From IMG/VR virus record IMGVR_UViG_3300009034_000016, positions 1-64,000 of that record: a stretch of 64,000 nucleotides of DNA; one strand, 5' to 3'. A model generated the notes under the pieces. It worked only from the letters and a program-made list of their open reading frames with translations. It did no database searches and was not told where the DNA came from. The position numbers were made by a program, and so were the translations under genes. Source of the DNA: a virus. The stretch's first letter is position 1; the number at the start of each line of letters is the position of its first letter. Positions 1-57,640 of this stretch are shown here, piece after piece.

Positions 1-1422
1 CTCCTTGCAGATCCCGTCCACCTGGATCGCTCTGAGGCGATAGACTCGCTGATTAAACATCGCAGAGTCCGGAACCAAGTCATTCGTCAACGGGTGCTCC
101 TGGAGAGAAGGCTTGATGTTCTATGCGAGTATGTGCTGGGTTATACCATCAAGCCGTTTCACCTGGCCATGATCAAATTCCAAGAAGAAAATCCCTTCTC
201 CCTCCAGTTAAGTTTCCGCGGAGCCGGTAAGAGCCACATACTAACCATCGCAAAGATAATCATGGAACTCCTAATCGATCCGAATATTCGGATTCTTATC
301 GGGAGCAAGACTCAAAAACAAGCCGAAGGTTTTCTCCGGTCGATTAAGCAGCATTTCATGTCCCCTCAGTTCGTCGCCGTATTCGGCAACAGGATAGGGG
401 ATAAGTGGGAGACTTCTGAGATAAACATGAGGGGACGGACCAGCACAGAGATGGAAAGTAATGTCTCGACTATCGGAGTGGAGGGGGCTATCGTATCGAG
501 ACATTTTAATCAGGCATATCTTGATGATATAGTAGCGGAGGAGAACTCAAAGACGCAACTTCAGCGGGACAAGGTATATACCTGGTATTATAAGGAACTT
601 GAACCATGCCTCCTTCCCGGAGAAGACACCCAGTTACACCTTAACGGAACCCCTTATCATCATAAAGATTTTTATAATCACCTGAAGAAAAGAGAATTAA
701 AGGAATTTACTCAAATAATCCCTTCCCTGGATAAAAAAGGTGGGACGCCTTGGCCAGAGCGGTTCCCAGTTGAATACTTTTTGCGGAAGAAAGCAAAAAC
801 TTCAACCGTTATTTTTAATTCGCAATATCAGTGCGACACCCGGGCGATGGAAGCTGCAATCTTCCAGCCGGATTGGTTTCGGGAATGGGATATCTTGCCC
901 GACAACCTCAGAATATTCCAAGCGGTTGATCCCGCAATCAGTCTAAAGACCTCTGCGGACTATTTTGCGAGCGCAACTATCGGGATTGATCACAGTGTAT
1001 CACCCGCGGAGGCTTATGTGCTAAAATGCTATAAAAAGCGAATGACTTTCCCTCAGCAAAAAGAAGAGATGATCCGGGATTTAATCGAATGGAATCCGGA
1101 GAGACTGGGGGTGGAGGCTAACGCATATCAGGGTGCACTTTACCAAGAACTCCGGGCCGATCACAGGACAAGTCCCTATACAATTGTTCCGATCTATAAT
1201 ACAGTTAAGAAAAAAAGCAGGGCCTTTCAGCTTGCCGGTAAATATGAGGAGGGGAGGATATGGCATAAGCAAGGATCCTCGGATTTGGAAGATCACCTGA
1301 TAGACATCACCGGCGATAAGGAAGAAGAGGACGATATGTTCGATGCTGTTGAAATGGGCGTCCGATTAGGTTTTGGTAAAAGAAGCAGAGCATTAAGAGA
1401 GGAAGAACCGGGGTTGATATGA
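1..1422 (+). CDS. terL: Terminase large subunit (frame is open from base 1, so the 5' end may lie outside the window)
   Basis: Walker A-like SFRGAGKS, Walker B YLDD, coupling motif GTPYH, RNase H-like nuclease motifs AVDPA and EDDMFDA; first gene of the head module. Confidence 0.93.
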   Translation, partial: LLADPVHLDRSEAIDSLIKHRRVRNQVIRQRVLLERRLDVLCEYVLGYTIKPFHLAMIKFQEENPFSLQLSFRGAGKSHILTIAKIIMELLIDPNIRILIGSKTQKQAEGFLRSIKQHFMSPQFVAVFGNRIGDKWETSEINMRGRTSTEMESNVSTIGVEGAIVSRHFNQAYLDDIVAEENSKTQLQRDKVYTWYYKELEPCLLPGEDTQLHLNGTPYHHKDFYNHLKKRELKEFTQIIPSLDKKGGTPWPERFPVEYFLRKKAKTSTVIFNSQYQCDTRAMEAAIFQPDWFREWDILPDNLRIFQAVDPAISLKTSADYFASATIGIDHSVSPAEAYVLKCYKKRMTFPQQKEEMIRDLIEWNPERLGVEANAYQGALYQELRADHRTSPYTIVPIYNTVKKKSRAFQLAGKYEEGRIWHKQGSSDLEDHLIDITGDKEEEDDMFDAVEMGVRLGFGKRSRALREEEPGLI

Positions 1423-3104
1423 GTAAAGGAAAAAAAGATGTAATGATGGAAGACGGTAAGGGCCCGGACAGCCCCACTAAGCAAAACATTGTGAAGGCGA
1501 TAGTGGTCGGAATTAGGGAAGATGTCCGTGCAGAGATGTCCGGGAAGACTCGGCAGATTGACGATTCCGAAGACTGGACTACGATGTATAAGGATGGGAA
1601 AGCGATTTCCCCTCCCTTTGAACCGTTAATTCTGGCTCAACTGCCGGAGAACAGCAGCGAACTCGGCCAGTGTATCGAAGCGATGGAGGTCAACATCGAG
1701 GGGTTCGGACATCGCTTTGTCCCCATTGTGGACTCAACAGAGATTAAGGAAGCTCAGAAAAAAGAGATGGAGAAGGAGCATGTAGAACTCTTTAATTTTT
1801 TTAATACATGTTCCGGAGTTGAGGAATCGTTCACGCAGTTAAGAAGAAAAACCCGGAAGGACATGGAAGCAACCGGGAACGGATACTGGGAAATTATCGA
1901 ACCGCCCCTTAAGAAAAATAGTCTTAGCGGGATCAATCATATCGAAGCTCACACTATGAGACTATCGACTCTTGACAAAGAGTTTGTTGATGTGGAGGAG
2001 AAAAGGCTGATTAAGAAGGATGACGGGACTTGGAAATACGAAGAAGTCAAGGTGCAGAGAAAGTTTAGAAAATTCTGCCAGATCAGGGGGGGCAGCACGG
2101 TATGGTTTAAGTCCCTGAACGATCCCCGGGATCTTAATTATAAGACGGGAGAGTTTGCGAAAGATGGGGCAAGGCTTAAAGTCGAAGACCGGGCAAATTC
2201 CGTGATTCATTTCAAAATCTATTCACCTCGCTCACCTTACGGAATCCCACGCTATATAGGAAACCTTTTTTCCATCTATGGGAGTCGGGCATCGGAGGAA
2301 ATAAACTACACTACACTGCGGAACAATAATATTCCCTCAATGATAGTCGCGGTGTCTAACGGCCAGCTTACTTCCGGGACGATTAAAAGAATGAAGGAAT
2401 TTGTTGAGACCCAGATTAAAGGTTCAGATAATTACAGCAAATTTTTATTATTGGAAGCAATGCCGGTTGAGGAGGGCGACGCGGGGGATGGAAAGGTCAA
2501 GATCGAGGTTAAGGAACTTACCGGATCGCAGATGCATGATGCTTTCTTCCAAACCTATGATAAGAACAATTGCGAAAAGGTCCGGCGGTCGTTCCGATTG
2601 CCGCCAATATTTTTGGGCGGCGCAGATGAGTATAATCGTGCTACGGCTGATACATCGAGGAAGCTCGCCGATGAACAAATCTTCGCCCCGGAGCGGGATG
2701 AGATCGATTTCGTGATCAATCGGCAGATACTCCCTAAGCTTAGTGCACGCTATTATGTGTTCAAGTCCAACAGCCCGATTATCACGAATAATGAGGAGTT
2801 AATCCGGCTCCTTACCGCAGCTGAGCGAGCAGGGGGGATTAACCCCCAGATAGCCCGTGATATTATATCCGAGATATTTGGAAAAGACATGGGAAAGGTT
2901 ACAGCAATAGATCCAAAAATACCTTTCACTATCCAAGTGGCAGAGGCGGCGAAGAAGCGTTCGCCGATTAATTTGGGCACGGTAGCACCAATAAAGTCGG
3001 ATGTAGATTATAGTGATGTGCAGGAATTCATAATGGGACTCTTAGCGGTTCGTAAGATTCTAACATCGTATTCGGAATATGGCGGGAAGATAGAAGGCGA
3101 ATAA
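1419..3104 (+). CDS. Portal protein (PBSX-like)
   Basis: Follows terminase; motifs GNGYWEI, SPYGIPRY, FRLPPIFLG, YNRATA typical of PBSX/HK97-type portals. Confidence 0.9.
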   Translation: MSKGKKDVMMEDGKGPDSPTKQNIVKAIVVGIREDVRAEMSGKTRQIDDSEDWTTMYKDGKAISPPFEPLILAQLPENSSELGQCIEAMEVNIEGFGHRFVPIVDSTEIKEAQKKEMEKEHVELFNFFNTCSGVEESFTQLRRKTRKDMEATGNGYWEIIEPPLKKNSLSGINHIEAHTMRLSTLDKEFVDVEEKRLIKKDDGTWKYEEVKVQRKFRKFCQIRGGSTVWFKSLNDPRDLNYKTGEFAKDGARLKVEDRANSVIHFKIYSPRSPYGIPRYIGNLFSIYGSRASEEINYTTLRNNNIPSMIVAVSNGQLTSGTIKRMKEFVETQIKGSDNYSKFLLLEAMPVEEGDAGDGKVKIEVKELTGSQMHDAFFQTYDKNNCEKVRRSFRLPPIFLGGADEYNRATADTSRKLADEQIFAPERDEIDFVINRQILPKLSARYYVFKSNSPIITNNEELIRLLTAAERAGGINPQIARDIISEIFGKDMGKVTAIDPKIPFTIQVAEAAKKRSPINLGTVAPIKSDVDYSDVQEFIMGLLAVRKILTSYSEYGGKIEGE

Positions 3105-3309: not shown

Positions 3310-3508
3310 GCAGGTAAGGGAATTGTTGAATAGGGCCGGTGTCACAATAAAGTCCGTAAAAATAAACGGGGCTCAAAAATGTATGGAAAGAAAGTTTAGC
3401 CGAGTAATGGAAGAGCATCAGGCAACAGTGCAGGAAATAGCTGAACTGATAAACGAGGAATGTTCTGGATGCAACCCGGGGGACGATGGAGATGGGGCTA
3501 CCAGCTGA
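3299..3508 (+). CDS. Hypothetical protein
   Basis: GGAG RBS; overlaps both neighbours in the operon. Confidence 0.5.
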   Translation: MVIKQVRELLNRAGVTIKSVKINGAQKCMERKFSRVMEEHQATVQEIAELINEECSGCNPGDDGDGATS

Positions 3509-4514
3509 AAAGTTAGAGACAATGAAGGCCAAGGCTGTCCGCGAGATCGACCTGCTTATGGTTGAGGTTATGATGGAGGGCTTGTCTCAGGAGCCCTCGA
3601 TCCGGCGGCTGGAAGTAAGTCTGGCCGAGTCTCTTGTTTCAAAATTCAAAAAGAGGGTCCAGGTGGCGATTAATCGTGGACTGGCTACCCTTAACCTAAA
3701 ACCCGATAAGCCCTATACGGACAAGGATGTTAGGAAATTTTTAGACGCCTTTAAAAAAGAGTACTCGAAGTTTCCGAAAGATGCTGAGCCCACCATTAAT
3801 AGGTTTGCTCCGGCGATGTATAACCAGAGCAGGCGGCTACCAGTGAAGCCGATCAAGAAGCAGGTTGCGATAGACTTCGACCTGATAGACGATGCGGCTC
3901 GGGCTCACATGACCAAGGAGAGTATGTGGTGGGTGGGAGATCATTACGATACGGTGCTCCGGGAACGGCTTAACGATATGACCCGTCACAGCATGATTGA
4001 GAAGGGGCTGGGGCGCGTTGAGGCGGCGAAGGATCTACGAAAGAGCTTGCAGGACAATATGCTGCGAGGCAAGATGCCAGCGGTTCCAATGCCTCCCGGA
4101 TGGCGGGGAACAGACCAGGCATACTTTGAAGCGTTATCGGGAAATATTGCAAACCGGGCAAGCAACTTCGGAACGATTACCAACTACCAGGAAGCGGGTT
4201 TTGAGACCTTTGAAATAGCCGCGATAATTGACCGAAGGACTTCAGATATTTGTCGACGGATGAATGGAAAGGTCTTTACCGTTGACCAGGGAGCCGATCT
4301 CCGGGACCGGATTATAGGCGCCGAGAACCCTACGCAGTTGAAGGGAATAGCGGGGTGGGTAAAAGGCAAGGAGGCTGAGAAGTTATTCGGGATCAAGTCG
4401 GGAGTTGCAGCCACTCCTGCGCAAACTACAAAAATGGCAAAAGCGGGTATGGCCTTGCCACCTTATCATTTTAGGTGCCGGACGGTAATTATACCCGGGC
4501 CGGCTACGCGATAA
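3486..4514 (+). CDS. MuF / SPP1 gp7-like head morphogenesis protein
   Basis: DRRTSDICRRMNG and C-terminal PPYHFRCRT motifs; position after portal. Confidence 0.88.
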   Translation: MEMGLPAEKLETMKAKAVREIDLLMVEVMMEGLSQEPSIRRLEVSLAESLVSKFKKRVQVAINRGLATLNLKPDKPYTDKDVRKFLDAFKKEYSKFPKDAEPTINRFAPAMYNQSRRLPVKPIKKQVAIDFDLIDDAARAHMTKESMWWVGDHYDTVLRERLNDMTRHSMIEKGLGRVEAAKDLRKSLQDNMLRGKMPAVPMPPGWRGTDQAYFEALSGNIANRASNFGTITNYQEAGFETFEIAAIIDRRTSDICRRMNGKVFTVDQGADLRDRIIGAENPTQLKGIAGWVKGKEAEKLFGIKSGVAATPAQTTKMAKAGMALPPYHFRCRTVIIPGPATR

Positions 4515-4523
4515 GAATAGATT

Positions 4524-7500
4524 ATGAGTCCAATTACAGCAGATGCTTTAAACGGGGGAAGAAAGCACCCAGCGCAGAGACGCTTCGAAAGTGCCTTAGT
4601 CGAGGACTGGAGAAGGCGACGCTGGGCTTTACTGCTCCACAGCGAAGATGTGCTCAAAATGGAGATCGAGGAAATTGATGTAGCGAGCCTTCGCAAGGCA
4701 AGCGACCGGGAGCTACTAAGCCTCCATCGGCGGACTCATCAGCTATGGTCAAAGGTAAAGCCGCACGAAAAGCGGGATGGACTTTATTTAGTGGCGCCCC
4801 ATGCGCAGAGGATATGGGAGGGTAAGAAGAGACTTATTATCAAATCTAAAAAATTTAATGTTGAAGGCAAGAAATACTACCTTGTTCAGGATAAAGTTTA
4901 CGGAGTTATAGAGATGGGAGCCCCTTACAGTATTAACTTAGAGGAGTTCAAGAAACTATCGAAGCTTCACCTGATATCCGAGAAGGAGAGGTCCGAATGG
5001 TGGCCAGACTATAAAACTCTTTATGCCTACGCCGTTAAAAAGTTCGAGAGATTCCCAACCCCGAAAGATTACGATAGGGTCCCGCAGGCCCAGATATTTG
5101 TCAAGGATGTTGAACCGAGAAACAAAGTATCGAGGAGTGATATCGAGGCGGCTCATGAATTAATAGTATCCGAAGTGATAAGGAGGGGAATGGAGCATAA
5201 GACCCCGCTGGAGGATAAGAAAACCAAAGGGGTGGCAAAGTCCGTCCCGAAGGGAATTGATGCAATCTATAACGATGAGTACTTCAAGGGGCTCCTGAGC
5301 ATAGACACAAATTTTATCGCTGATCTTGCAGAGGTCAATAAGTACCTGGCGGGGGAAAGCTTACTCGAAATAGGTTGTGGATGCGGCAGGGCACTCAAGG
5401 TATTTGAAGTTTCCGGAATGAGCATTATCGGGGTTGATGCCGCAAGTAAGGCGATAGAGATGTGCAAGGCTGCCGAGCTCGAGGCCCGGAGGATGGATGC
5501 CCAGTATCTCGAATTCAGAGACGGGATGTTTGACACAGTTTTCTCAATGCACCTGCTTGAACATCTCGAAGATCCTATTAAGGCGATTACCGAGTCTCTA
5601 AGAGTAGCACGGAAGAGGGCGATTCATTTAGTTCCGCTTGGTAAGCGGGAGGATGTTACGCACCTCTGGGAATTTCTCAGCATAGAGAATTTACGGTCTT
5701 TCGTAGGGGATTTAGAAGTTGCAACACACTTTCAACGGATTCCAATGACTAATTGTGGGGTTATTGTATTTGATAAAGAACTACGGGGCGACATTCCTTT
5801 TTTTAATTATCTTGATTCTTTTACGGTAACTCCCGGATATGTCAGCCTCGGAGGGGGGTCGGTTAAAAAACCAAACCCGGACGATCTCGATATAATTATC
5901 AGGGAGGAAATACCGGATGATGGGCTGGAGGTAGCCCTGAGAAATCTCTTTTTCGATCCTGAGATAAGGAAGCGACTGCATTTCATCTATCATTCGGCTG
6001 GCCCTCACGATGATAGCATACCCCTGATGGACAAAGTCTGTCAGCTTCGTTCTGATTTTGAAATAAATCGAGTTGATGTAGAGAAAAGAGAATTGAAGCC
6101 TCTAACCCACTTCAAGCCCTTAAAGACCGGGAGGGGATATACGCAATTGGAGTTCTTTGCCCCGGAGGAGTTGTGGGAGAAGTGGGCCAAGCCCCTGATG
6201 GACGAAGGGATCGATATTGAGGTGGAAAGAAAATTTGGTGGCTGGCGCACGATCGCGCAAATTGACGAGAAGGGCAAGACCTATATATATTTTGATGATA
6301 CCAAGACTGACCGCTCAAAGCAGTTTATGAGTTTGGTTAGCGATCTTGAAGTTATCGGGGAGCCAGTAATATTAGACATGGATCTCGGTGCGGTCTATTC
6401 CGATGGTAGGCCAGTCGATAGAGTTAATCTTGGATTCGGCGGTAAGGTAATAATCCCGGAGAGTGGTAAATTTAAAATCAAGGATGGGCTGGATGCAATG
6501 CTTGTGGCGAATGTCTTTGATATCCTTTACTACGAAGGAGAGGATCTACATACCAAGCCCTGGGAGGAGAGGCGGGAAAGCTTGGAGAAGCTATTTGGCA
6601 AGCATGATTTTCGATTTCTTAAATTAGTCAAGAAGAATATTACATCCGATAAGAAAAGTTTCTTGGCCGCGGTGGCCCGGGTATCGAAGTTACCTGGATC
6701 GGAAGGAGCGGTGCCCAAGGCGGTAAATGGAGACTATCCACTTACGGGTATGACGCCGAGCGTAGCAAAAGTCAAAAATACACTCGAAATCAAAGTTCAG
6801 GTGATGGGTCGAACTCCGGTTAAAGATGAGGATATATGGACTTATGATATATCCGCTCTTGGGGGGGATGGCAATCCCGTAGATCTCGGCAAAACCATGA
6901 ACACCAAGCTGGATACCAAAGCTGGCGATATTATTACGATCTCAGTTCAGGAGGTTATACCTGATTGGGACGAGGAGCGTGAAATCTGGACGATTGCTAT
7001 CGTGATCCCGATTCCGCAAAATATAGAGCCGGGGAGAAAGAAGCCCGACACGGTTAGTGAGATTATCGTCAGGGCGGATAAGGCCAACATTCTCCAGGCA
7101 TCCCCGGCGGTGCGTGATAAGCTCAGGGCTTCAAGAATATCGGTCCGGAAGTTTATCGAGGAGCTTGTTGACTGCTTGGATGAAGAGAAACGGGATGCCC
7201 TCAGACCGCAGCCCGGGTCCCGGGAGGGGCTTGCTAACGAAGTTGTAAAATACATTCCAGAGCATAAAACCTACGTAGAGCCCTTTGCTGGCGGCGGTCG
7301 AGTGCTGATGAAAAAAGAGCCGTCCGAAATTGAGGTTCTTAGCGACTTAGATTCGGAAGTAATGTTCATGTTTAAGGCCGCCAAGTCCTTCACTAAGGAA
7401 GAAATAGAAAAGTTAAGGAAAATGGATTGGACGCGTGCGGAATCGAAATGGCTTCAGCTTAAGAAGTCAAAATTTAAAGATAAGCTCCGGGAATTCTACC

Positions 7501-9143
7501 GACTGATGTATGTCCGAAGATGTTCGTTTAATTACGATGGCTCTGCGTTTGCACGAAATAAAGAAGGGAGTCGGCTTGATTTTGGCCGAATAGAGCCTTG
7601 GTTTGGAGCAAAGGGAAGGCTTGCTAAGGTTAAGCTTCTTACCTGTGACTATGCGATTGCTATAAAAAGATTCGATGGTCCTGAAACATTTTTCCATATC
7701 GATCCGCCTTTTATAGGACATACTGAAAGCGGGGGATGGAAAAAATGGAAAGGCTTTGATTTCGAGAGACTATTTAAAATCGTTAAACAAATCAAGGGAA
7801 AATGGCTACTTACGATCGACGATGCTAAGGAAGTAAGAAAAATATTTTCTAAATATCATATAAAAGAAATTAAGGTTTTTAAGGGAAGCCAGCGTTTTTC
7901 TTGGTATGGGAATAAGATAAGGACGGAGCTCCTTATATCCAATTACAAGTTAGAGAAGGCTGGCGGGGGCAAGGCCGAGGAAACAGAGAAAGCCCAAAAG
8001 CCCGAGGCGAAGATCACGATCAAGAAGGGTGATAAGGGAGATGGGATACTCCAGACCCATGAACTCGGCCTAACGGAAGACCAGGTTAAACTACTCGGCC
8101 CCGACTTTTCATTCGGCTGGGATCCGGTCGAAATAAGCGATAGCCAATTTGGGAGACTCTATGAGATCCAGGATATTGGTTGGGAAGGGCTTGTTAAGAA
8201 AGCATCGGAAGGTGACTCTTCTAACCTGGGTAAGGCGATCAATAAAATTGATAAAGACGAACTGTCAGTATCCCAAAGAAAACTCATTGCACTGGTTGAA
8301 CCGGTTGCTATTCACACTGACATTAGATTACATCCGAAAGGGGCGCCATACTGGGAAGGCGGTGAGGGATTTACTCCGGGAAATCAGTTCCAAATAAATA
8401 AGTTTACTTTATTAGAAAAGGATGCTAAGGTTAGAATATTAATGGACTTCAAACGCCCCCGAAAGGGGACGGGAAGAGTCGAAACGATTAGAGGTCCCTT
8501 GATATGGTTAAAGGTCGGACTCAAAAAACCTCAAAGCTTTCCGCCCGGCTCGGTCGGTTCGACAGCAAAGGCTTGGGCAAGGTTTACGATAAGGGATTTG
8601 TTCGACTGGGAAGCAGGCACTCAGGAACCGCACTATAAGGAGTTTAAGTTTGACGATGGTGTACTTAAGGGCAGACATATTATGGCCTTCGCTCCACTTC
8701 CTGGGCGTGAGCAGAGAATGTGGCTGTTCTCCAGGCCGGGCAAACAAGAGATGGACGAAGAGGGAAAAAGTATCGTCAAGATACTCAAGGTCGATGAGGA
8801 GAAGAGAACTGTCCTCGGAGTAGTATTAGAGCCAGAAACTTTCGATGCCCAAGATGAAATTGTCAGTGCACCAGTTATTGAGAAAACCGCACATGACTTC
8901 CTTGCGAACTACAATCAAAAGACCAAACTTGGATATATGCACACCTTCTTTGAACCGGATCTCCAATTATATGAGTGTTATGTCGCACCCATAGATATGG
9001 TAATCGAGGGGACGAGGGTAAAGAAGGGTTCCTGGCTTATGCTCAGCAAGGTAAATGACGACCATATCTGGCAGCAGGTAAAGGATAAGAAAATTAAGGG
9101 ATATTCCATAGCGGGAATCGCAATAGCAAGGACTATCGGCTAA
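4524..9143 (+). CDS. Multidomain polyprotein: ASCH/PUA-like, class I SAM methyltransferase, nucleotidyltransferase-like, ATP-dependent DNA ligase, Dam/D12 adenine methylase, LigD 3'-phosphoesterase-like, C-terminal XkdF-like prohead protease
   Basis: Motifs in order: GLYLVAPHA..IWEGKK; LLEIGCGCG..FDTVFSMHLLEHL; LGGGSV..DDLDIII; ERKFGGWR, VFDILY, EGAVPK, KVK; YVEPFAGGG..DPPF; QTH..HTDIRL..LKGR..WL; VLGVVLEP..DAQ..YMH..KGSW..GYSIAG. Occupies the prohead-protease slot between MuF and scaffold. Confidence 0.8.
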   Translation: MSPITADALNGGRKHPAQRRFESALVEDWRRRRWALLLHSEDVLKMEIEEIDVASLRKASDRELLSLHRRTHQLWSKVKPHEKRDGLYLVAPHAQRIWEGKKRLIIKSKKFNVEGKKYYLVQDKVYGVIEMGAPYSINLEEFKKLSKLHLISEKERSEWWPDYKTLYAYAVKKFERFPTPKDYDRVPQAQIFVKDVEPRNKVSRSDIEAAHELIVSEVIRRGMEHKTPLEDKKTKGVAKSVPKGIDAIYNDEYFKGLLSIDTNFIADLAEVNKYLAGESLLEIGCGCGRALKVFEVSGMSIIGVDAASKAIEMCKAAELEARRMDAQYLEFRDGMFDTVFSMHLLEHLEDPIKAITESLRVARKRAIHLVPLGKREDVTHLWEFLSIENLRSFVGDLEVATHFQRIPMTNCGVIVFDKELRGDIPFFNYLDSFTVTPGYVSLGGGSVKKPNPDDLDIIIREEIPDDGLEVALRNLFFDPEIRKRLHFIYHSAGPHDDSIPLMDKVCQLRSDFEINRVDVEKRELKPLTHFKPLKTGRGYTQLEFFAPEELWEKWAKPLMDEGIDIEVERKFGGWRTIAQIDEKGKTYIYFDDTKTDRSKQFMSLVSDLEVIGEPVILDMDLGAVYSDGRPVDRVNLGFGGKVIIPESGKFKIKDGLDAMLVANVFDILYYEGEDLHTKPWEERRESLEKLFGKHDFRFLKLVKKNITSDKKSFLAAVARVSKLPGSEGAVPKAVNGDYPLTGMTPSVAKVKNTLEIKVQVMGRTPVKDEDIWTYDISALGGDGNPVDLGKTMNTKLDTKAGDIITISVQEVIPDWDEEREIWTIAIVIPIPQNIEPGRKKPDTVSEIIVRADKANILQASPAVRDKLRASRISVRKFIEELVDCLDEEKRDALRPQPGSREGLANEVVKYIPEHKTYVEPFAGGGRVLMKKEPSEIEVLSDLDSEVMFMFKAAKSFTKEEIEKLRKMDWTRAESKWLQLKKSKFKDKLREFYRLMYVRRCSFNYDGSAFARNKEGSRLDFGRIEPWFGAKGRLAKVKLLTCDYAIAIKRFDGPETFFHIDPPFIGHTESGGWKKWKGFDFERLFKIVKQIKGKWLLTIDDAKEVRKIFSKYHIKEIKVFKGSQRFSWYGNKIRTELLISNYKLEKAGGGKAEETEKAQKPEAKITIKKGDKGDGILQTHELGLTEDQVKLLGPDFSFGWDPVEISDSQFGRLYEIQDIGWEGLVKKASEGDSSNLGKAINKIDKDELSVSQRKLIALVEPVAIHTDIRLHPKGAPYWEGGEGFTPGNQFQINKFTLLEKDAKVRILMDFKRPRKGTGRVETIRGPLIWLKVGLKKPQSFPPGSVGSTAKAWARFTIRDLFDWEAGTQEPHYKEFKFDDGVLKGRHIMAFAPLPGREQRMWLFSRPGKQEMDEEGKSIVKILKVDEEKRTVLGVVLEPETFDAQDEIVSAPVIEKTAHDFLANYNQKTKLGYMHTFFEPDLQLYECYVAPIDMVIEGTRVKKGSWLMLSKVNDDHIWQQVKDKKIKGYSIAGIAIARTIG

Positions 9144-9240: not shown

Positions 9241-9276
9241 AAAGGGCTTGGGTTTGAATACCCAAGCCCTTTTTTA
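9241..9276 (+). terminator. Rho-independent terminator-like hairpin upstream of the scaffold gene
   Basis: AAAGGGCTTGGGT-loop-ACCCAAGCCCTTT followed by a T run. Confidence 0.75.
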
Positions 9277-9320
9277 GTTGGGGAGGGAATTTTTAGTGTG
9301 TGTGTAGTGCCTTGAATCTC

Positions 9321-9334
9321 TGCACGCGCGTGCA
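9321..9334. repeat. TGCAC-RCGC-GTGCA palindrome, copy 1 (abuts scaffold RBS)
   Basis: TGCACGCGCGTGCA followed by CGGAGG; related copies at 26752, 32913 and 62504. Confidence 0.7.
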
Positions 9335-9348
9335 CGGAGGGAGAGATA

Positions 9349-10341
9349 GTGGCTTCACCCGATGTTCCGAGGCCTGGAAGTTCGATAGACGATGATAAGA
9401 AAAAAAAGCGGCTTGTCGGCTTAACGGCCAGGGAAGTGAGTCTAGTAGACAGACCAGCGAATCAGAAGGATTTTCTTGTAATTAAAAATTTATCCGAGAA
9501 AGGAGGGATAGAGATGAAAAGAGAAAAAGTTATTAACGAAGAGGGCAAGGAAGTGCAGATAGTCAAGGATGACCCGACTGGGGACGTTGTCACTCTAGAA
9601 CTCAGTGAGGAGGAAGCTCAAGTTGCTCTTGCTGAGGATCTGGATATTTCGCTAGATGAGTTGAAGTCGCTCCAGGAAAGTGTGAAAGACGAAGGCGAAG
9701 ATGGAGTAGGCGACGGTGCTGGTGGGGCGGCGGACACTGGAGGAGATGCTGGTGGAAAGGAGAAGCAGGTTAAGCTTCCCGCTGCTACGGAGACAATGAT
9801 TAAGAAGCTAATTGCTTTGCTTACCAAGTTACTCGCAAAGTATCCTTATGGATATGGCTATCCGAAAGCCCCCGGATCCCAGAAGACTACGGTAAAGGAT
9901 GGAGGCGATGGTTCTGGTGACAGTGAATCTGGAAAGGGCGCCAGCGAAGGCGATGGTGCCCAAGATGTTGAGAAGATCGGCAGTCCGATTTCCCGGGAAC
10001 GTCTCAAGACTCTGAGAGGGGTTGTCATTACGCTTCAAAAGCTTCTTGACGAACTGGATAAGAAGAGTGAGGGAGAGGAGGCACCAGCTAAGAAGGCCGA
10101 TGAAAAGGGCGGAGAGGAGACTCCGAAGGAAGAGGTCCCGGTTAAGAAAGCCGAAGGAGGCGACGGTGCTGGCGACAAAGGTAAGGAAGATCCCACTCTA
10201 TTAGAGGTAGTGGCCGAGTTGAAAGGTCGCGTAGAGGCCATGGAGCAACTCGAGGGAACTCAAAAGGGACAAAAAGCCGATGGGACGGAAGGTGGCGGGA
10301 CGAAGGAAGGTATGTGGAGTAATGTCCTGGGCATCTCATAA
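9349..10341 (+). CDS. Capsid scaffolding protein
   Basis: N-terminal EVSLVDRPAN motif, acidic low-complexity body, short hydrophobic C-terminus (MWSNVLGIS); directly before the capsid gene. Confidence 0.7.
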   Translation: MASPDVPRPGSSIDDDKKKKRLVGLTAREVSLVDRPANQKDFLVIKNLSEKGGIEMKREKVINEEGKEVQIVKDDPTGDVVTLELSEEEAQVALAEDLDISLDELKSLQESVKDEGEDGVGDGAGGAADTGGDAGGKEKQVKLPAATETMIKKLIALLTKLLAKYPYGYGYPKAPGSQKTTVKDGGDGSGDSESGKGASEGDGAQDVEKIGSPISRERLKTLRGVVITLQKLLDELDKKSEGEEAPAKKADEKGGEETPKEEVPVKKAEGGDGAGDKGKEDPTLLEVVAELKGRVEAMEQLEGTQKGQKADGTEGGGTKEGMWSNVLGIS

Positions 10342-10363: not shown

Positions 10364-11436
10364 ATGACTAAGATGACTAATCAAGAACTTGTTGAAAAGG
10401 GAATAATTGTCGCGTCTGCCCTGGCTACTCAGGGAAAGCTCAATCCGCAGCAGGCCGACAAGTTCCTGGACTATGTCATCGACGAGACGAAACTCAAGGA
10501 CGCAGCGAGGATTGTAAGGTTCAAGCCCGAGAGCTACGATATCGACAAAATCGGAGTTGGGGCGAGAGCAGCGGTGCCGAAGGCTGAGGCTACCGACCCG
10601 GGAATCCGCCGGGGTATTGTCACATCCAGGGTAAGGTTAACTCCTGAAGAAGTTATGGTCCCAGTGGAGATCAGCGATATCTTCAAGGATGTTAATATTG
10701 AGGGCGATGATGTAGAGACTCATATCATCAAAATGTTTGCTACCCAGTTAGCAAACGATCTGGAAGAGCTCTATATCATAGGTGATATTCTCGGACCAGC
10801 CGTACTGGAGGGGAATATCGTAGATGGTGGATCAACGACTCAGTATATCAGGGATAGCTACCTGGCGCTCATGAACGGATGGCTCAGGATATGCGATGGG
10901 ACTACTACTCCCCTCCGGGTGGGGGCGCATGTAGTCAATGCGGCCGGAGTCAACATCGAGTCCAAAATCTTCTCGAACGCGATCAAGGCTATGCCGGAGA
11001 AGTTCAAGCGGAACCGGAATCAGTTAAGATTCCTTATCGCACCCGACTTGGAACAGAACTACCGGGAAAAGATCTCGACCCGGGCAACCGGCGCTGGTGA
11101 TGTAGCCCTGTCTACCACCAAGAACCTGACTCCGTTCGGGATCGAGGCGGTTCCAATACCACTACTAGCCAGGATCTAACCAACGGGACGATCACTAGGC
11201 TTACTGGGGGAGCCATTGGTTCCGGTGCTACCGTGAAGGTGACCTATAGCCCTTATTCCCAGATGCTCTTAACCCATTTCCGGAATCTTATTGTAGGTCT
11301 GGGAAGGGATGTGCGGATCGAGAAGGACAGGGACATCTTCAAGGGTGTTAATCAGTATGCGATTACGATCAAAGTGGCGGTGGATATTGAGAACCTCGAC
11401 GCAGTCGTCAAGGTAACGAATATCGGCTTATTGTAG
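10364..11436 (+). pseudogene. Major capsid protein (HK97 fold) split into 10364-11179 and ~11170-11436 by a frameshift or deletion
   Basis: N-part GKLNPQQADKFLDYVID..QLANDLEEL; C-part LLTHFRNLIVGLGRDVRIEKDRD..DAVVKVTNI lies in the -1 frame, which is open from ~11170 (QDLTNGTITRLTGGAIGSGATVKVTY). Confidence 0.8.
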
Positions 11437-42208: not shown

Positions 42209-43003
42209 TTGGAATTGATACCTAATAACTACGAGATGAAGAAGCAGGCGAGAATAGACCAATATAGAGAAAGAGCAGAGAAAGCCCGTGTTGAGTCAGA
42301 TTTGAAATACAAGGAAGCTAAGAGGATGGGGGAAGTAATTCCAATGGGACAACCAATCTTGATCGGACATCACTCAGAAAAAGCAGACCGAAATTATAGG
42401 GCACGGATTGATAAAAAAATTGATGGGTCTTATAGGGAATTAAAAAAAGCTGAGCATTACGAAAGGAAGGCCGAGGCAGCCGAAAAAAACAGGGCAATTA
42501 GTTCAGACGACCCGGAGGCAGTCCAGAAGCTCAAGGCCAAGATAGAGAAAGCCGAGAAATATCAGGCAAGGATGAAGCAGGTAAACCAAGCCTTTAAAAA
42601 GGGCGATGAGGCACTGAAAGCCCTGGGGCTAACAGATGAGGCCATTTACATAATGAAAGCCAAGATAGAAGGTGCTTACAGTTGGGAAAAACAGCCCTTC
42701 CCTTCATATTGCTTGACCAACAATAACGCTAACATCCGGCGAATGAAGAAACGGCTCGAAGACATTGAGAGCCAGCAAGGAGCTGAAAGCTCAGCCAAAC
42801 AATATGATGGCTTTGAGATAGTTGAAGACATAGAGGATAACAGGATCCGGATTCTATTTGATGGGAAGCCCCCGGAGAACATCAGAAGCATTTTAAAACA
42901 GTGTGGATTCCGCTGGAGCCCCTACAATAAAGCCTGGCAGAGACACTTAAACAATGCCGGTAGGGGTGCAGTCGAGCAGGCAATTAATTTGATGAATGCT
43001 TAA
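42209..43003 (+). CDS. DUF3560-domain protein
   Basis: PMGQPILIGHHSEKADR, ISSDDPEA, GFRWSP..AWQR. Confidence 0.85.
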   Translation: MELIPNNYEMKKQARIDQYRERAEKARVESDLKYKEAKRMGEVIPMGQPILIGHHSEKADRNYRARIDKKIDGSYRELKKAEHYERKAEAAEKNRAISSDDPEAVQKLKAKIEKAEKYQARMKQVNQAFKKGDEALKALGLTDEAIYIMKAKIEGAYSWEKQPFPSYCLTNNNANIRRMKKRLEDIESQQGAESSAKQYDGFEIVEDIEDNRIRILFDGKPPENIRSILKQCGFRWSPYNKAWQRHLNNAGRGAVEQAINLMNA

Positions 43004-46408: not shown

Positions 46409-47653
46409 ATGGAGAAAAAAACAATGAAGGTGAAGATATTACAGATCGGTGACATCCATCTGAGAAGCAAGCACTTGGATGAGAATCTAAAATGCTGTGA
46501 TTTTGCAGCTGGTAAGGCTGAGGAAGAAAAGCCTGACATCATAATGGTTACCGGAGATGTCTTCGATAGCCAGGTTGCTCTTGATAGCGAGGTAGTCCGA
46601 GCGGGAATTGAATTTCTTGGCCGCTTAGGAGACGTTGCCCCGATGATCATTGTCCAGGGGACAAGGACTCATGACCGTGATAGTCTTAAGGCCCTACAGA
46701 GACTCAAGACAGCACACGATGTCCATATATCGTTTGAGCCGGAGACGATTGTATTTACTGGTATTAGCTTTATAAAAACGGTTGCCGAGAATTATTCTCA
46801 GGCCAGCCACCTCAACGCCAAGCTCCTGATTAACACCCTACCCGCGCCCCCCCGCCTGGCCGGTGAAGGGAGTTTGGAAGAGCAGAGTCAGAACCTTGCC
46901 AGACACTTGGAAACGATAATCACGGGCTTCGGGGCATCGGCCGCAGAGCTCGATTGGCCACACGTGATCGCGGGACATATAAGCATAAAGGGGGCAAAAA
47001 TTTCAGATAAGCAGATAATGTTCGGAATGGACGCCGAGCTATCAAAGGAAGCTTTTGTCCCAGCGAAGGCGGACCTGATATGTCTGGCTCATATCCATGT
47101 AGCACAGAGAATCGGAGACAACATATTTTATTGCGGGTCTACATCCCGCCTGAACTACGGAGAGGACGAAGGCAAGGGGTTCTGGATGCATGAGTTGTCC
47201 TGGGGGAAGGAAAGAGATCCTGTCTCTCAACGATTTTGCGTGGATAGAAAGAGCAGATTCATAGAGACGCCGGCCAGGAAGATGATCTTGATTGAGGAGG
47301 ACCTGACCGGTGAGGGGATTGACAGATTCAGGAACGACCTTATAGGGGCTGACTTCGAGGACTGCTTTGTCCGGGTTAGATATCGGATTAAGGAAAAAGA
47401 CGTCCATCGGCTCGGGAGAAAAGAGGTTGAAGGTATAATGAATAAGAGTGGAGCTTACGAAGTAAAGATCGAGGTTGAGGTTGTCCCGGAATTGCGAGTG
47501 CGCTGCGAGAACCTGGTAACCGCCGGAACGCTGAGGCAGAAGATTGTAGCAATGCCCAGGGAGGAGCCCGTGCCCGAGTCGGTCTTGGAAAAAGCTGATA
47601 AGCTCGAGGACCTAAATAAGGAAGAGATAGAAACGGGGGTAATGGAATTATGA
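46409..47653 (+). CDS. sbcD: SbcD/Mre11-like metallophosphoesterase nuclease
   Basis: GDIH, GDVFD, GTRTHD, AGH, LAHIH motifs. Confidence 0.88.
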   Translation: MEKKTMKVKILQIGDIHLRSKHLDENLKCCDFAAGKAEEEKPDIIMVTGDVFDSQVALDSEVVRAGIEFLGRLGDVAPMIIVQGTRTHDRDSLKALQRLKTAHDVHISFEPETIVFTGISFIKTVAENYSQASHLNAKLLINTLPAPPRLAGEGSLEEQSQNLARHLETIITGFGASAAELDWPHVIAGHISIKGAKISDKQIMFGMDAELSKEAFVPAKADLICLAHIHVAQRIGDNIFYCGSTSRLNYGEDEGKGFWMHELSWGKERDPVSQRFCVDRKSRFIETPARKMILIEEDLTGEGIDRFRNDLIGADFEDCFVRVRYRIKEKDVHRLGRKEVEGIMNKSGAYEVKIEVEVVPELRVRCENLVTAGTLRQKIVAMPREEPVPESVLEKADKLEDLNKEEIETGVMEL

Positions 47654-47866
47654 GCCAAGGAGAGGTAGCATGACTATGGACGTTCCTCTTATTAAGAGAC
47701 GAGAAATGGTTATTAAGAATAAACAGACCAAGAGAAGGAGCAAGCCAGAATATTGAGAAGGAAAAATAGAAAATGATAAAACTTATTTTGGTATTGATTT
47801 TATTTCTATTTAACATTGTTCTCGGCCTTAAACTGGCCAGGCTGCATAGAGAGGATAGGTGGAAAA

Positions 47867-50056
47867 ATGATTAATCAGCGCATTCGATTGGTAGGGTTCA
47901 CCGGGATCCAGAGTGGGATGGGCTTAGAGGAAATAGATGTAGACCTCCGGGGCCTCAGAGGATTAGTTGCTATCTGTGGGGACAACGGTGCGGGTAAGTC
48001 TACCTTCTTAGAGTGTCTGCAACCATTCCGGCAGATGATTAGCCGGGAAGGGGGTTTGAAAGATCATACTTATTTGAGCCAGTCTGTCAAGGAACTCTGG
48101 TTTAGCATGGACGGAATCGATTATCACTCAACGGTGCTTGTTAATCCGCAGAAAGAGAAAAGCACGGGAACGCTATTGCCCGGGACTAATAGCGGGCTGG
48201 TTAGTGATTACGATACCGAACTCAGAAAGCTGATAGGTTCCCCCACTATGTTCATGAACTCGGTATTCGCTGGACAAAAGAGTAAAAGGTTTACCGAGTT
48301 GACTCAGGGTAATCGAAAGGAACTCTTCATTGAATTTCTCGGCCTGGATCGGTTAATAAATTACTGTCAGATCTCCCGGGGCTGCGAGAAGTTAATTAAG
48401 GTCAAGCGGATGGGGGTGGAGGAGGAAATCCGCAGGCTTCGGGATAAAGTAGGGGACTTAGACGACCTGAGACAAAGGGTAAAAGCAAAGGAGGGGGACC
48501 TCGAGACATTCAGACAGTACCTCGCTCAACTGAGCAAGCAACTTACCGAAGCAAAAGGTCAGCACAATATCCTGGAAGCTCAGGCGATAGAGGTGGTTAA
48601 AAAGAGGGGAGAGATCGAGGCCCTGAAAGCGAAGATAAATGGCAAGGAGAGCGAGATCCGGGCGGAAGTAACTGGGAACTTAAATAGGCTGGAAACGCAT
48701 AAACGAGGACTTGAGAGGGAGGTTGAAAGTGCGGATAGAGACATAGCCGATGCGAAGGCTAAAATCTCCAGAGCTGAGGGGCAGCTTGACTCAATAGCAG
48801 AGATAGCATCAATAGAGCCCTGGGCCATCGAGAAGATGAAAGCCGAACTAAAGCTCATAGACAATAAAGTAAAGCAACTGAATCAAGTCGAGAAAAGATA
48901 TGCTGGTGTGGATGCTACCATTAAGGCGAAGGTGGGGGAGGTTAAGAGACTCGAGGGCCGGCCAGCGGACTGCAAAATCAATGATTGTGTATTTATTTCC
49001 GGGGCTCTTAAGGCTAAAGAAGACCTTGAGTCGTCAAGGCAGATGATGATAGGGTTGGAAAGGGAGCTTATAGCCCTACCGGAACTAAATGAGAAAAAGG
49101 ACTTACTTTCAGATAAGCTGTCAACCCTGGCGGAGAACCAGCAAAAGATTGCCGACCGGGAACATCTTAAGCAGAGAATAAAAGAGAATGAGAGGATTCT
49201 GGCCGTTAAGGGAAATAAATCGGGAGAACTTCACGAAGAGATTGAGAAGACCTCGGCGTCAATCCAATCCTTAAGTGTCCAGTCTGCCCTTGATAGGAGC
49301 CAGGAACTTAAGGATCTGTCCCTGGAGTTGAACAAGGCCGAGGAGTCGATCGATGAAGATGTTGTGTTCCAAAGGGATAAATTAAAAACCGAAATAGAGG
49401 GGATACAGAATACCGTCAACGAGACAGGGGAGAAAATTGCACAGGTGGATGCTAATCTAAATTCACTTAAGAACGAAATAGCTGAGGCCGAGAAATCTCA
49501 GGAGGAAATTAAGTCGCTGTCGGAGAGGGTTAAATTTCTGGAATCCGAGCAATCGGATTGGATATTTCTGGGAAGGATCTGTGGGAAAGACAACCTACAA
49601 GCACTTGAGATAGATGCCGTGGCTCCTACTGTCACGGGATATGCGAATAGCCTATTAAGTGCGTGTTATGGATCCCGGTTTAATATTACTTTTCAGACTG
49701 TCAACGAAAAAGGGAATGAAACTTTCGATGTAATTATAAATGATATTAAGCAGGAAAGGCCAGTTCTAATTGAAAATGTTTCCGGGGGGGAGGAAGTATG
49801 GATACTTAAAGCGTTACGGTTGGCTGTTACACTGATGATGAAATCAAGATCTGGTAGGCGGTTTCAAACTCTTTATTCAGATGAAGAGGATGGTGCTTTA
49901 AATCCCACAAAAAGAGAACCTTATGTTCAGATGTATCGAAAGGCAATGGAAATTGGTGGATTTGAGGTAGCTTATTTGATAACCCATTCCCCGGAAGTGA
50001 TTCAATTATGCGATTCAATAATGAGGTTTGGAGAGGGTGGTATTAGTAGAGAATAA
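47867..50056 (+). CDS. sbcC: SbcC/Rad50-like SMC ATPase
   Basis: Walker A GDNGAGKST, long coiled coil with central Cys pair, SGGE signature, DEEDGAL, ITH. Confidence 0.9.
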   Translation: MINQRIRLVGFTGIQSGMGLEEIDVDLRGLRGLVAICGDNGAGKSTFLECLQPFRQMISREGGLKDHTYLSQSVKELWFSMDGIDYHSTVLVNPQKEKSTGTLLPGTNSGLVSDYDTELRKLIGSPTMFMNSVFAGQKSKRFTELTQGNRKELFIEFLGLDRLINYCQISRGCEKLIKVKRMGVEEEIRRLRDKVGDLDDLRQRVKAKEGDLETFRQYLAQLSKQLTEAKGQHNILEAQAIEVVKKRGEIEALKAKINGKESEIRAEVTGNLNRLETHKRGLEREVESADRDIADAKAKISRAEGQLDSIAEIASIEPWAIEKMKAELKLIDNKVKQLNQVEKRYAGVDATIKAKVGEVKRLEGRPADCKINDCVFISGALKAKEDLESSRQMMIGLERELIALPELNEKKDLLSDKLSTLAENQQKIADREHLKQRIKENERILAVKGNKSGELHEEIEKTSASIQSLSVQSALDRSQELKDLSLELNKAEESIDEDVVFQRDKLKTEIEGIQNTVNETGEKIAQVDANLNSLKNEIAEAEKSQEEIKSLSERVKFLESEQSDWIFLGRICGKDNLQALEIDAVAPTVTGYANSLLSACYGSRFNITFQTVNEKGNETFDVIINDIKQERPVLIENVSGGEEVWILKALRLAVTLMMKSRSGRRFQTLYSDEEDGALNPTKREPYVQMYRKAMEIGGFEVAYLITHSPEVIQLCDSIMRFGEGGISRE

Positions 50057-50343: not shown

Positions 50344-51003
50344 ATGGAAGAAGATAATCGGTATTATGATATTCCGATCTATTTACTTGATGTGATAAAA
50401 AAATTAGCCCCAATAAAAGTCGCGGTCCTAATATATTGCGCTGAAATTATTTATGGATTGGGAGCTAAAAGGGTTTTTATAGACCAAGTCGTTATGCAAT
50501 TAGGAATTAAGAAAAAAGAGGCGGAGGTGGTTTTAAATAAATTAGTTAGAATGGGGGTAATGATTAAAGAGGGAGAGTGTTATAGTTTTATTAATATAGA
50601 AAAACTAAGGAATATATCACGAGGCTGGGAAAAATATAAAACGAAAGTTATAAATCCATCAGAACATAAAACCGAAACTATAACGATCACAGAAGAAGAG
50701 AAAAGAATACTTAAAGTCCTCTGTGAAATAAAAGGATTCCCAAGAGGGTATAAAGAGGATGTAATAACAATAAAACTTATAAGGGCCTTAGAAGAGGAAT
50801 TTCCAATAGTTGACCCCGAGGAATTGGTAAAGAATTGGGTTGTGTATAAACAAGATCAACCATTTAAAAAAAGATCATCACCTCGAGCGCAGTTAAGAAA
50901 CCAGTTTAAAATGGCGTCGCAGCGGGGGATGTTCCTTAAGTCGCCGGGACTAAAAGGGGAAGGGAGAAAATATGCAGGAAAAGTCGCTCGGTATAAAGGA
51001 TAA
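50344..51003 (+). CDS. Putative replication initiator (winged HTH plus C-terminal helical domain)
   Basis: N-terminal wHTH pattern (VLNKLVRMGVM); lies between the origin-like locus and the loader ATPase. Confidence 0.6.
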   Translation: MEEDNRYYDIPIYLLDVIKKLAPIKVAVLIYCAEIIYGLGAKRVFIDQVVMQLGIKKKEAEVVLNKLVRMGVMIKEGECYSFINIEKLRNISRGWEKYKTKVINPSEHKTETITITEEEKRILKVLCEIKGFPRGYKEDVITIKLIRALEEEFPIVDPEELVKNWVVYKQDQPFKKRSSPRAQLRNQFKMASQRGMFLKSPGLKGEGRKYAGKVARYKG

Positions 51004-57385: not shown

Positions 57386-57640
57386 ATGGTAGTTAAAACA
57401 CAATGGCTCAAATTTATAGAGAAAAAACCAAAGCCTAAAACAAGAGTATTTGCAGTTACACCTAAAGAAAATAATTGTGAACTCGGAGAGATAAAATGGT
57501 ATGGCCCCTGGAGACATTATTGTTTTTTCCCCACAACAGAAATAGAAACAGTTCATTCAGATAGGTGCCTATTAGAAATTTCAACATTCATAACAAGATT
57601 GAATAAAGAACATGCTGATACTAAAGAAGGAGGAAGGTGA
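57386..57640 (+). CDS. Hypothetical protein, paralog of 56062-56316
   Basis: Shared LKFIE..PKPKTR.F.V, CELG.IKWY..WRHYCFFPT, ETVHSDRCLL. Confidence 0.75.
   Translation: MVVKTQWLKFIEKKPKPKTRVFAVTPKENNCELGEIKWYGPWRHYCFFPTTEIETVHSDRCLLEISTFITRLNKEHADTKEGGR

Follow-up and report, generated by a model that had tools for sequence, protein, structure and literature searches.

The first 64,000 nucleotides of the IMG/VR virus record IMGVR_UViG_3300009034_000016 were analyzed (hereafter the window; the whole record is of 80,478 bases and is judged 66% complete). At positions 4524 to 9143, the window encodes one protein of 1539 amino acids (aa) in which a chain of nucleic acid enzyme domains stands ahead of an XkdF-type prohead protease. 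Seven domains are recognizable in it: an ASCH domain, a class I S-adenosylmethionine (SAM) methyltransferase, a nucleotidyltransferase (NTase)-like domain whose assignment is plausible, an ATP-dependent DNA ligase, a D12-class N6-adenine DNA methyltransferase, a predicted LigD-type 3'-phosphoesterase (PE) and the protease itself (Table 1). The open reading frame (ORF) lies in a contiguous head module, in the order TerL, portal, MuF, polyvalent ORF, scaffold, and major capsid protein. We read it as a polyvalent protein of a phage, with cargo enzymes that would be packaged ahead of their own prohead protease, cut free inside the head, and ejected with the DNA, and we consider the chances of this reading to be about even. 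Packaging, cleavage, ejection, and the substrates of the enzymes are inferred, as no cultured phage has a protein of this form.

A check of the ORF and its translation revealed zero internal stops, in agreement with the first-pass annotation of this DNA, which had claimed an uninterrupted 1539-aa frame between MuF and scaffold; the chance of a frame this long at 47% G+C is approximately (61/64)^1540, or e^-74. A second protein, P0002 (1537 aa), shares this architecture; it comes from another data source, where an independent contig encodes it, and is 78% identical to the first from end to end, from which it follows that the fusion is not an artifact of assembly. The frame break that this record shows in the neighboring capsid gene might prompt the suspicion that the ORF is a chimera of the assembly or arose by reading through several genes, but such an origin is hardly credible beside P0002 and beside the more than 40 large homologues and more than 20 IMG/VR loci that share the fused layout. 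The true start may be M45 (4656) rather than 4524, since several homologues begin at a position aligned to M45-46. No clear Shine-Dalgarno sequence was found at either start, the ATG at 4524 sits 9 nucleotides (nt) past the MuF stop, and no internal start or Shine-Dalgarno sequence was evident just upstream of the XkdF domain.

The C-terminal domain was identified as Peptidase_S78_2 by Pfam (aa 1418-1533; E value of 2e-27, 96.1 bits against a cutoff of 24), as had been proposed for an XkdF-like protease, and it also matched the head maturation protease family phrog_3017 (E value of 1e-32). Residues 1150 to 1539 were folded with AlphaFold using a 21-sequence alignment from IMG/VR loci (A2), giving a predicted local distance difference test score (pLDDT) of 80 and a predicted template modeling score (pTM) of 0.70. 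The fold of the XkdF domain in this model is that of T4 gp21 (5jbl; Z score of 8.9, third in the structure search), whereas the protease of the herpesvirus varicella-zoster virus scored only 4.7, within the background of unrelated rows. Conserved residues include D1441, Q1443, H1473, and S1528; all 47 sequences of alignment A6 have the last two, which also occur in at least 90% of the A2 rows and which by analogy would form the catalytic pair. No other prohead protease of the S78 or ClpP type was found in the 80-kb record (the corresponding search for S77 was uninformative, as its control matched nowhere), leaving XkdF as the only prohead protease detected there. Because it is the sole detectable prohead protease and the head module is contiguous, entry into the procapsid must take place for the C-terminal end at the least, if not for the entire chain.

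Directly ahead of the protease, the same confident model contains the eight-stranded beta-barrel of the PE fold, mapped at aa 1170-1405, in the segment that the first-pass annotation had likened to the LigD 3'-phosphoesterase. The top two of approximately 48,000 PDB representatives were 3p4h (Z score of 12.9, root mean square deviation of 2.1 A, 117/118 residues) and 3n9b (Z score of 11.1), and the Foldseek list was headed by six LigD-PE chains from four entries (3p43, 3n9b, 5dmp, and 3p4h; E values from 2e-4 to 4e-3). Residues Gln7, His9, His15, Asp17, Arg19, and His51 of the Korarchaeum enzyme CkoPE correspond to Q1177, H1179, H1264, D1266, R1268, and H1370, with the equivalence of H1370 and His51 being a probable one drawn from the pattern H-x3-[Y/F]. 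In CkoPE, the two histidines and the aspartate bind manganese, while arginine and the other histidine bind phosphate (PMC3082917). All six residues are invariant in the 14 sequences of the A1 clade; H1370 is kept in all 21 rows of A2, and at least 90% of these rows have H1264, D1266, and R1268. An insert of 35 to 85 aa splits the PE motif across the family. Sequence searches with the segment gave no match in Pfam (E value of ≤1), and those with profile A2 gave none in the PDB (E value of ≤10), and it is by modeled fold and motif that the segment is assigned to the phosphoesterases.

The ligase matched DNA_ligase_A_M (PF01068) at aa 563-751 (E value of 3e-11, 43.8 bits against a cutoff of 26.2), as expected from the earlier call of an ATP-dependent ligase, and its profile (A5) retrieved archaeal DNA ligases and eukaryotic Lig1 over the adenylation domain with E values down to 8e-23. 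These PDB profile alignments end at the adenylation domain, and a conserved region of approximately 120 aa follows motif V. Among NCBIfam models, those of LigD (TIGR02776) were the best-scoring ligase family, but at 43.8 bits against an equivalog cutoff of 373; no archaeo-eukaryotic primase (AEP) polymerase domain was detected in the protein with Pfam or NCBIfam. Across 14 sequences K570, R575, D618, F665, S726-E-G, and K732 are invariant, with K749 and K751 present in at least 90%. The family motif I reads K-x-[G/N/D]-G-x-R and motif III is without the usual Glu; the ligase motifs are thus present but noncanonical. The first-pass caveat that KFGG and LDMD are off consensus stands; the lysine and arginine of motif I and motifs IIIa and IV are invariant. 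Per-domain identity to P0002 is highest in the ligase (94%), despite its odd motif I, and lowest in the D12 domain (55%), with values of 65% for the SAM methyltransferase and 62% for the NTase-like domain; such a mosaic would suit an exchange of cassettes or, alternatively, modification domains that evolve faster. The polyvalent ORF carries the only ligase detected in the 80-kb record. In the homologues P0041, P0015, and P0100, inteins or LAGLIDADG homing endonuclease domains lie in or beside the ligase.

The Dam/D12 adenine methyltransferase of the first-pass annotation was likewise borne out, matching MethyltransfD12 (PF02086) at aa 898-1118 (E value of 1e-15, 58.2 bits against a cutoff of 22), phrog_56 (E value of 5e-41), and PDB entry 7m6b (E value of 7e-12), with motif I PFAGGG at aa 920-925 and motif IV DPPF at aa 1060-1063. 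That annotation had counted DPPF among the deviating motifs, which was mistaken; motif IV of the D12 class is (D/N/S)PP(Y/F/W), and DPPF is a normal variant. As the match to TIGR00571 (dam) scored 63.3 bits, under the curated cutoff of 114.85, GATC specificity is not to be assumed. The domain (window 7164-7990) is absent from P0003-P0014 and within the close clade occurs only in this protein and P0002, indicating that this lineage gained it by insertion, with the ligase on one side and the phosphoesterase on the other. The available 80 kb hold no other clear D12 methyltransferase, although a second stretch with weak similarity to this class (E value of 8e-4, one internal TGA) was seen at G000:C1:76281-76520, near the end of the record and outside the window.

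Toward the N terminus, a conserved helical hairpin, LLxLHxRxHQLW ... HxLVVxEMxRRGMxH, runs uninterrupted in P0005, P0006, P0007, P0011, and P0017, whereas here its loop is split by the ASCH domain (window 4656-5258). The ESM Atlas score of the ASCH segment was 0.94, with all ten best matches being ASCH (190/256 shared features). A profile of 11 proteins (A4) matched TTHA0113 (1wk2/2dp9) over its full length (114/122 positions; E value of 7e-8), in support of the ASCH/PUA-like call made earlier; TTHA0113 has been treated as an ASCH protein (PMC6803910). Pfam matches to ASCH were weak, being limited to 2/11 members and below the threshold on the window copy; in P0028, the E value was 0.028. The signature GxKxxExR is here G-x-K-x-x-[IV]-x-K, with Gly and Lys retained, Glu replaced by Ile or Val, and Arg replaced by Lys. 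In the second hairpin helix, 27 residues (aa 205-231) matched Pyr_excise, the family of T4 endonuclease V, with an E value of 0.007; this match was dropped, as it was not reproduced in homologues, and Pfam searches with the isolated unassigned segments of this protein gave no significant match. The adjoining class I SAM methyltransferase, also called correctly in the first pass, matched Methyltransf_11 at aa 281-367 above the gathering score (Pfam E value of 5e-16); its PDB matches were small-molecule methyltransferases, and its NCBIfam matches all fell under their cutoffs.

Every segment placed by the first-pass annotation falls within a few residues of a mappable domain, and six of its seven domain calls were right; the seventh is the nucleotidyltransferase-like segment (mapped at aa 426-515), for which there are motifs and weak matches. 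Its signature, G[GS]-x7-DxD with GPH[DS]...D, is kept in 14 homologues (alignment A3) and reads GGGS-x7-DLD here. G444, D456, R460, and G493 are invariant in A3, and D454, P494, H495, and D503 occur in at least 90% of rows. Pfam returned DUF6932 for 7/14 members (best E value of 2.7e-4), Polbeta for 2/14 (0.014), DNA_pol_B_palm, and MTPAP, and the ESM Atlas scores of 0.84 to 0.86, below 0.9, pointed to NTP_transf_2 clusters. An AlphaFold model from the 14-sequence alignment failed (pLDDT of 46), the profile gave only chance matches to eIF6 in the PDB, and no stand-alone homologues of 86 to 286 aa were found. Residues 420 to 520 are therefore described here as a plausible nucleotidyltransferase of the Pol-beta type. 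The module is almost always found with the ligase (adjacent in 38/38 homologues, and 3/4).

This repertoire would also be compatible with a kit for RNA, in which the ASCH domain, a Hen1-like SAM methyltransferase, the 3'-phosphoesterase, and the ligase, whether delivered or made late, repair the damage that host anticodon nucleases do to tRNAs or other RNAs. ASCH domains are associated with RNA (PMC6803910, and a preprint on an ac4C eraser), LigD-type PE removes 3'-ribonucleosides and 3'-phosphates (PMC3082917), the SAM methyltransferase is not recognizable as a DNA methyltransferase, and in sister proteins the ligase is accompanied by 2H/LigT phosphoesterases. However, the ligase is a member of the family of ATP-dependent DNA ligases, with archaeal DNA ligases, Lig1, and LigD as its best matches, the D12 domain acts on DNA, and no polynucleotide kinase domain was found; an RNA kit is accordingly judged improbable.

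To place the protein in its family, a word-indexed search was used, which yielded 44 large relatives with shuffled cargo, and 23 IMG/VR loci (L002-L024) were mapped for the PE-protease ORF. The order TerL-portal-MuF-[cargo-PE-XkdF]-scaffold-MCP, MCP being the major capsid protein, is kept wherever the flanking head genes of the IMG/VR loci are detectably similar (>15 loci). The survey of XkdF-like proteins for variable N-terminal cargo that the first-pass annotation had recommended was performed using HMMER and the XkdF domain alone against 1.84 billion representative proteins, and 4480 homologues were identified at an E value of ≤1e-3. Among the best 150 of these, XkdF lies no more than 20 aa from the C terminus in 147, and an N-terminal extension of at least 250 aa is present in 73 and of at least 1000 aa in 20. 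Pfam identified the cargo of 47 long representatives as D12 methyltransferase (18), DNA ligase (10), 2H phosphoesterase (10), C5 methyltransferase (2), and InPase (2), and NUDIX, UDG, PALP (a PLP enzyme), and metallo-beta-lactamase domains were found in further homologues. The cargo of the protein described here is the richest of its immediate clade, in which the relative P0003/L002 has 1118 aa.

Other arrangements were observed among the relatives. In P0022 (2643 aa), a ligase and XkdF are joined by as many as five C5-methyltransferase stretches and by other methyltransferases, and P0016 (990 aa) has three tandem D12 methyltransferases and XkdF. In L006 (3569-7201), the MuF gene is stretched to 1211 aa, with MuF at approximately aa 270-370 and no Pfam match in the remainder, and the XkdF ORF has only 503 aa; a transfer of cargo from the protease to MuF may have taken place here. 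The label "DNA methyltransferase" carried by XkdF genes of cultured phages (the 349-aa protease-scaffold protein of Lactococcus 28201 and the 151-aa protein of phiPsa374) is an annotation carry-over, as neither contains a methyltransferase.

Own-module hidden Markov models located the phosphoesterase directly ahead of XkdF in 23/145 representatives, 19 of which are without a ligase, and PE with XkdF occurs as a minimal unit without further cargo. The module thus seems to be linked to the protease and not to the ligase. As it accompanies XkdF without a ligase and some of its sites are degenerate, it may belong to the protease end and be partly structural, although its active site is intact in the clade of the protein described here. 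The first-pass argument that ligase plus phosphoesterase are the end-healing and sealing parts of LigD is weakened by this linkage. The degenerate sites in some PE-XkdF relatives, and the off-consensus ligase motifs, would also suit cargo that is packaged as an internal body, a filler, or a DNA-binding core concerned with genome organization or internal pressure, with catalysis secondary or lost. Little credence is given to inert cargo of this kind, as in this clade little or no variation is seen at the catalytic residues of the ligase, PE, D12, and protease domains (14 to 21 sequences at 27 to 53% identity), and the ligase is the part best preserved in P0002.

Delivery as part of the virion fits the position in the head module, the sole prohead protease, the C-terminal placement of XkdF behind variable cargo, and a repertoire of the polyvalent type. 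XkdF, needed inside the procapsid for maturation, would carry the entire chain in during head assembly and, once activated, would cut the K/E-rich linkers between domains, with x-E-K followed by R, A, or S as candidate sites. Of the six occurrences of x-E-K-[R/A/S] in the chain, five lie at domain junctions (after K83, K521, K889, K1145, and K1156; p of approximately 0.002, which is only indicative, being post hoc); a V/I-E-K bias 6 to 8 residues upstream of XkdF was found in 163 homologues. The freed, folded enzymes would be too large for the capsid pores and would therefore stay in the head and exit with the DNA at infection. Precedents for proteins that are packaged in the head and ejected are the T4 internal proteins and Alt, P1 DarB, and N4 virion RNA polymerase (vRNAP). 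In the new cell, the D12 methyltransferase could modify the incoming genome against restriction, while the NTase-like domain, the ligase (possibly adenylated already when packaged), and the 3'-phosphoesterase could act as a functional analogue of bacterial LigD that heals and seals nicks or breaks, or circularizes the genome, before phage genes are expressed.

Several points weigh against packaging and delivery. F1374 replaces the PE tyrosine (Y55 of CkoPE) in this clade, with Phe, Ile, or Leu in the sister clade; this tyrosine is needed for vigorous 3'-phosphomonoesterase activity, and Ala mutants retain diesterase activity (PMC3082917). Some proteins consisting of PE and XkdF only are without H1370 or a metal histidine, motifs I (KFGG) and III (DMDLG) and the motif VI region of this ligase are off consensus, the fold of the NTase-like domain is unproven, and the candidate cleavage motif is short and was recognized after the fact. 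Related XkdF domains of cultured phages stand alone or are fused to a scaffold, without cargo, and here XkdF is not fused to its scaffold, the listed GTG start of which follows the stop of the polyvalent ORF after a gap of 205 nt. The frame break in the capsid gene means that this genome or its assembly is imperfect, and no Ku homologue was found in the record, which is incomplete as noted above. Methylation of incoming DNA must also outrun restriction, and methylation of progeny before packaging is commoner.

The last point belongs equally to the main rival reading, that of a late cytoplasmic polyprotein, in which XkdF (alone or with PE) cleaves itself off before or during entry into the procapsid, the other enzymes methylate progeny DNA, seal its nicks, and trim its concatemer ends, and fusion serves only coexpression or stoichiometry. 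Methylation before packaging is the usual route against restriction; K/E-rich linkers part the cargo from PE-XkdF, the minimal PE-XkdF unit exists without the rest, and the ligase and D12 domain, as the sole clear ones of their kind in the 80 kb, may be needed for progeny DNA. Against this, further ligases or methyltransferases may exist in the missing part of the record, and coexpression alone poorly explains why cargo with a shuffled repertoire of delivered type should stand in the head module ahead of a head protease that is strictly C-terminal in nearly all of the best relatives. A late cytoplasmic role is given well below even chances. The delivery reading also has a stronger form, about as tentative, in which the virion brings in a self-contained, LigD-like end-joining kit (minimal NTase, preadenylated ligase, and 3'-phosphoesterase) with a methyltransferase, independently of host repair factors, so that the genome is circularized, or breaks made by restriction or CRISPR are resealed and protected, before expression, and the protease is a general, evolvable cargo handle in thousands of uncultured phages.

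Table 1. Domains of the polyvalent ORF and neighboring head genes (positions in the window)
Feature	Position	Strand	Residues (aa)	Motifs and remarks
Whole polyvalent ORF	4524..9143	+		Alternative start M45 at 4656, giving 1495 aa
First helix of conserved N-terminal helical hairpin	4656..4775	+	45-84	..LLSLHRRTHQLW..; motif recurs N-terminally or internally in homologues
ASCH (PUA-like) domain	4776..5123	+	85-200	In hairpin loop
Second hairpin helix and K/E-rich linker	5124..5258	+	201-245	
Class I SAM methyltransferase (Methyltransf_11 type)	5259..5723	+	246-400	Motif I EIGCGCG 5367-5387
Plausible Pol-beta-type nucleotidyltransferase-like domain	5781..6083	+	420-520	GGGS 5850-5861; DLD 5883-5891; GPHDD 6000-6014
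ATP-dependent DNA ligase, adenylation and OB-like region	6084..7163	+	521-880	
Ligase motifs				I ERKFGGWR with K570 6225-6248; III LDMDLG 6372-6389; IIIa VFDILY; IV SEGAVPK 6699-6719; V KVK 6768-6776
D12-class N6-adenine DNA methyltransferase	7191..7973	+	890-1150	Motif I PFAGGG 7281-7298; motif IV DPPF 7701-7712
Predicted LigD-type 3'-phosphoesterase beta-barrel	8028..8741	+	1169-1406	QxH 8049-8063; HxDxR 8310-8330; HYKEF 8628-8645
Phosphoesterase helical insert, 75 aa	8079-8303	+	1186-1260	Between QxH and HxDxR
XkdF-type (Peptidase_S78_2) prohead serine protease	8754..9140	+	1411-1539	GYMHT 8931-8945; GYSIAG 9099-9116
Large terminase (TerL)	1-1422			Head-module neighbor
Portal	1419-3104			Head-module neighbor
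MuF-like minor head protein	3486..4514	+		Pfam Phage_Mu_F E 2e-7; phrog_115; upstream neighbor
Probable scaffold	9349..10341	+		Acidic, low complexity; N terminus EVSLVDRPANQKDFLVIK; weak phrog_3017 match in N-terminal part; syntenic in relatives
Major capsid protein	10364..11179	+		phrog_1623 E 8e-58; annotated as major capsid in Streptomyces phage relatives

Downstream of the polyvalent ORF, the N terminus of the probable scaffold (window 9270-9420), ..LTAREVSLVDRPANQKDFLVIKN.., resembles the N-terminal part of the protease-scaffold family phrog_3017, and the motif EVSLVxRGAN at its start also opens the homologue P0014, which is without XkdF; this element could serve for docking between protease and scaffold. 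The capsid gene (window 10364-11436) is broken near 11150-11180, with homology to relatives running to approximately 11168 in one frame and from approximately 11146 to 11430 in another; 38 to 52 residues of the 423- to 458-aa capsid proteins of relatives are unmatched, and the break is either an assembly error or the mark of a defective genome. An origin from an archaeal virus, hinted at by a ligase match to ANMV-1, was rejected, as portal and capsid are closest to those of bacterial phages. The replication region includes an SbcD-like and SbcC-like nuclease pair (46409-50056), a primase-like protein (42209-43003), a DnaC-like loader (50972-51634), and a radical-SAM protein (57637-58563).

The polyvalent proteins of phages and conjugative elements, including a class with a C-terminal assemblin-like peptidase, were defined by Iyer, Burroughs, Anand, de Souza, and Aravind (Iyer et al. 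2017, J Bacteriol; PMC5512222), who described two to fifteen disparate domains per polypeptide, with the assemblin-like peptidase always C-terminal, and who proposed for this class the logic of packaging, processing, and delivery. The protein described here, with seven domains in 1539 aa, a place in the head module, and XkdF at its extreme C terminus, is alike in joining disparate enzymes in one chain among virion genes, in its N6-adenine methylase (a hub domain of polyvalent proteins), and in its terminal head-processing peptidase, and the 2H and InPase domains of its relatives are typical of the class. It differs in having neither a zincin-like metallopeptidase nor a MuF domain. Iyer et al. 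considered the assemblin-like subclass "rather limited in distribution" (PMC5512222), whereas about half of the best 150 of the XkdF homologues counted above carry cargo, making this a large family with a layout that is common in metagenomes. Their main text lists no DNA ligase among the cargo, nor a LigD phosphoesterase or ASCH, speaks of ligases solely in the case of RNA ligases not associating with the 2H domain, and confines Pol-beta NTases to conjugative elements' polyvalent proteins (PMC5512222). The idea of delivery is therefore already in print as a prediction, and what is notable here is the rich cargo, its repair type, which is not described there, and the linkage of phosphoesterase to protease; a literature search found no later paper on the XkdF-ligase form. 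If the reading is true, prohead proteases are a widespread device for loading ready-made enzymes that act in counterdefense before transcription, this would be the first virus to bring its own DNA break repair enzymes inside the particle, and a protease handle with cleavable linkers and swappable cargo would offer a template for loading proteins into phage capsids.

Bacterial LigD is the ligase of nonhomologous end joining and consists of a polymerase, a 3'-phosphoesterase, and an ATP-dependent ligase. The polyvalent protein resembles it in carrying an NTase-type domain, an ATP-dependent ligase, and a predicted PE barrel on one chain, and in retaining the residues with which PE binds metal and phosphate (Q, H, H, D, R, and H). 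However, its NTase would be of the minimal Pol-beta type (unproven), whereas that of LigD is an archaeo-eukaryotic primase-polymerase; the two metal histidines of its PE are separated by the 75-aa helical insert, and its PE has Phe for Tyr; the D12 domain separates ligase and PE; and, unlike in LigD systems, Ku was not found, and PE is tied to the protease family-wide.

P1 DarB, T4 IPI* and Alt, and N4 vRNAP are alike, as proposed here, in being head-enclosed enzymes injected with the DNA, and DarB contains a methyltransferase. Capsid-targeting sequences direct the T4 proteins to the prohead and are cut by gp21, the prohead protease whose fold XkdF shares. In those phages, however, the cargo is a separate protein with a targeting peptide or partners, and its packaging has been shown experimentally, whereas here it is fused to the protease and known from sequence alone. 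MuF-fused effectors and polymorphic toxins likewise have a head-internal carrier of variable enzymatic cargo, and a MuF gene adjoins the ORF, but their carrier is N-terminal and their cargo C-terminal, the reverse of the order seen here. Ordinary XkdF proteins (PBSX XkdF, gp33 of the Lactococcus P335 group, and phiPsa374 gp161) have the same protease domain in the same slot between portal/MuF and capsid. Those proteins are stand-alone (151 aa) or have the protease followed by the scaffold (349 aa), without cargo, whereas in the protein described here the protease domain ends the chain and the scaffold is separate.

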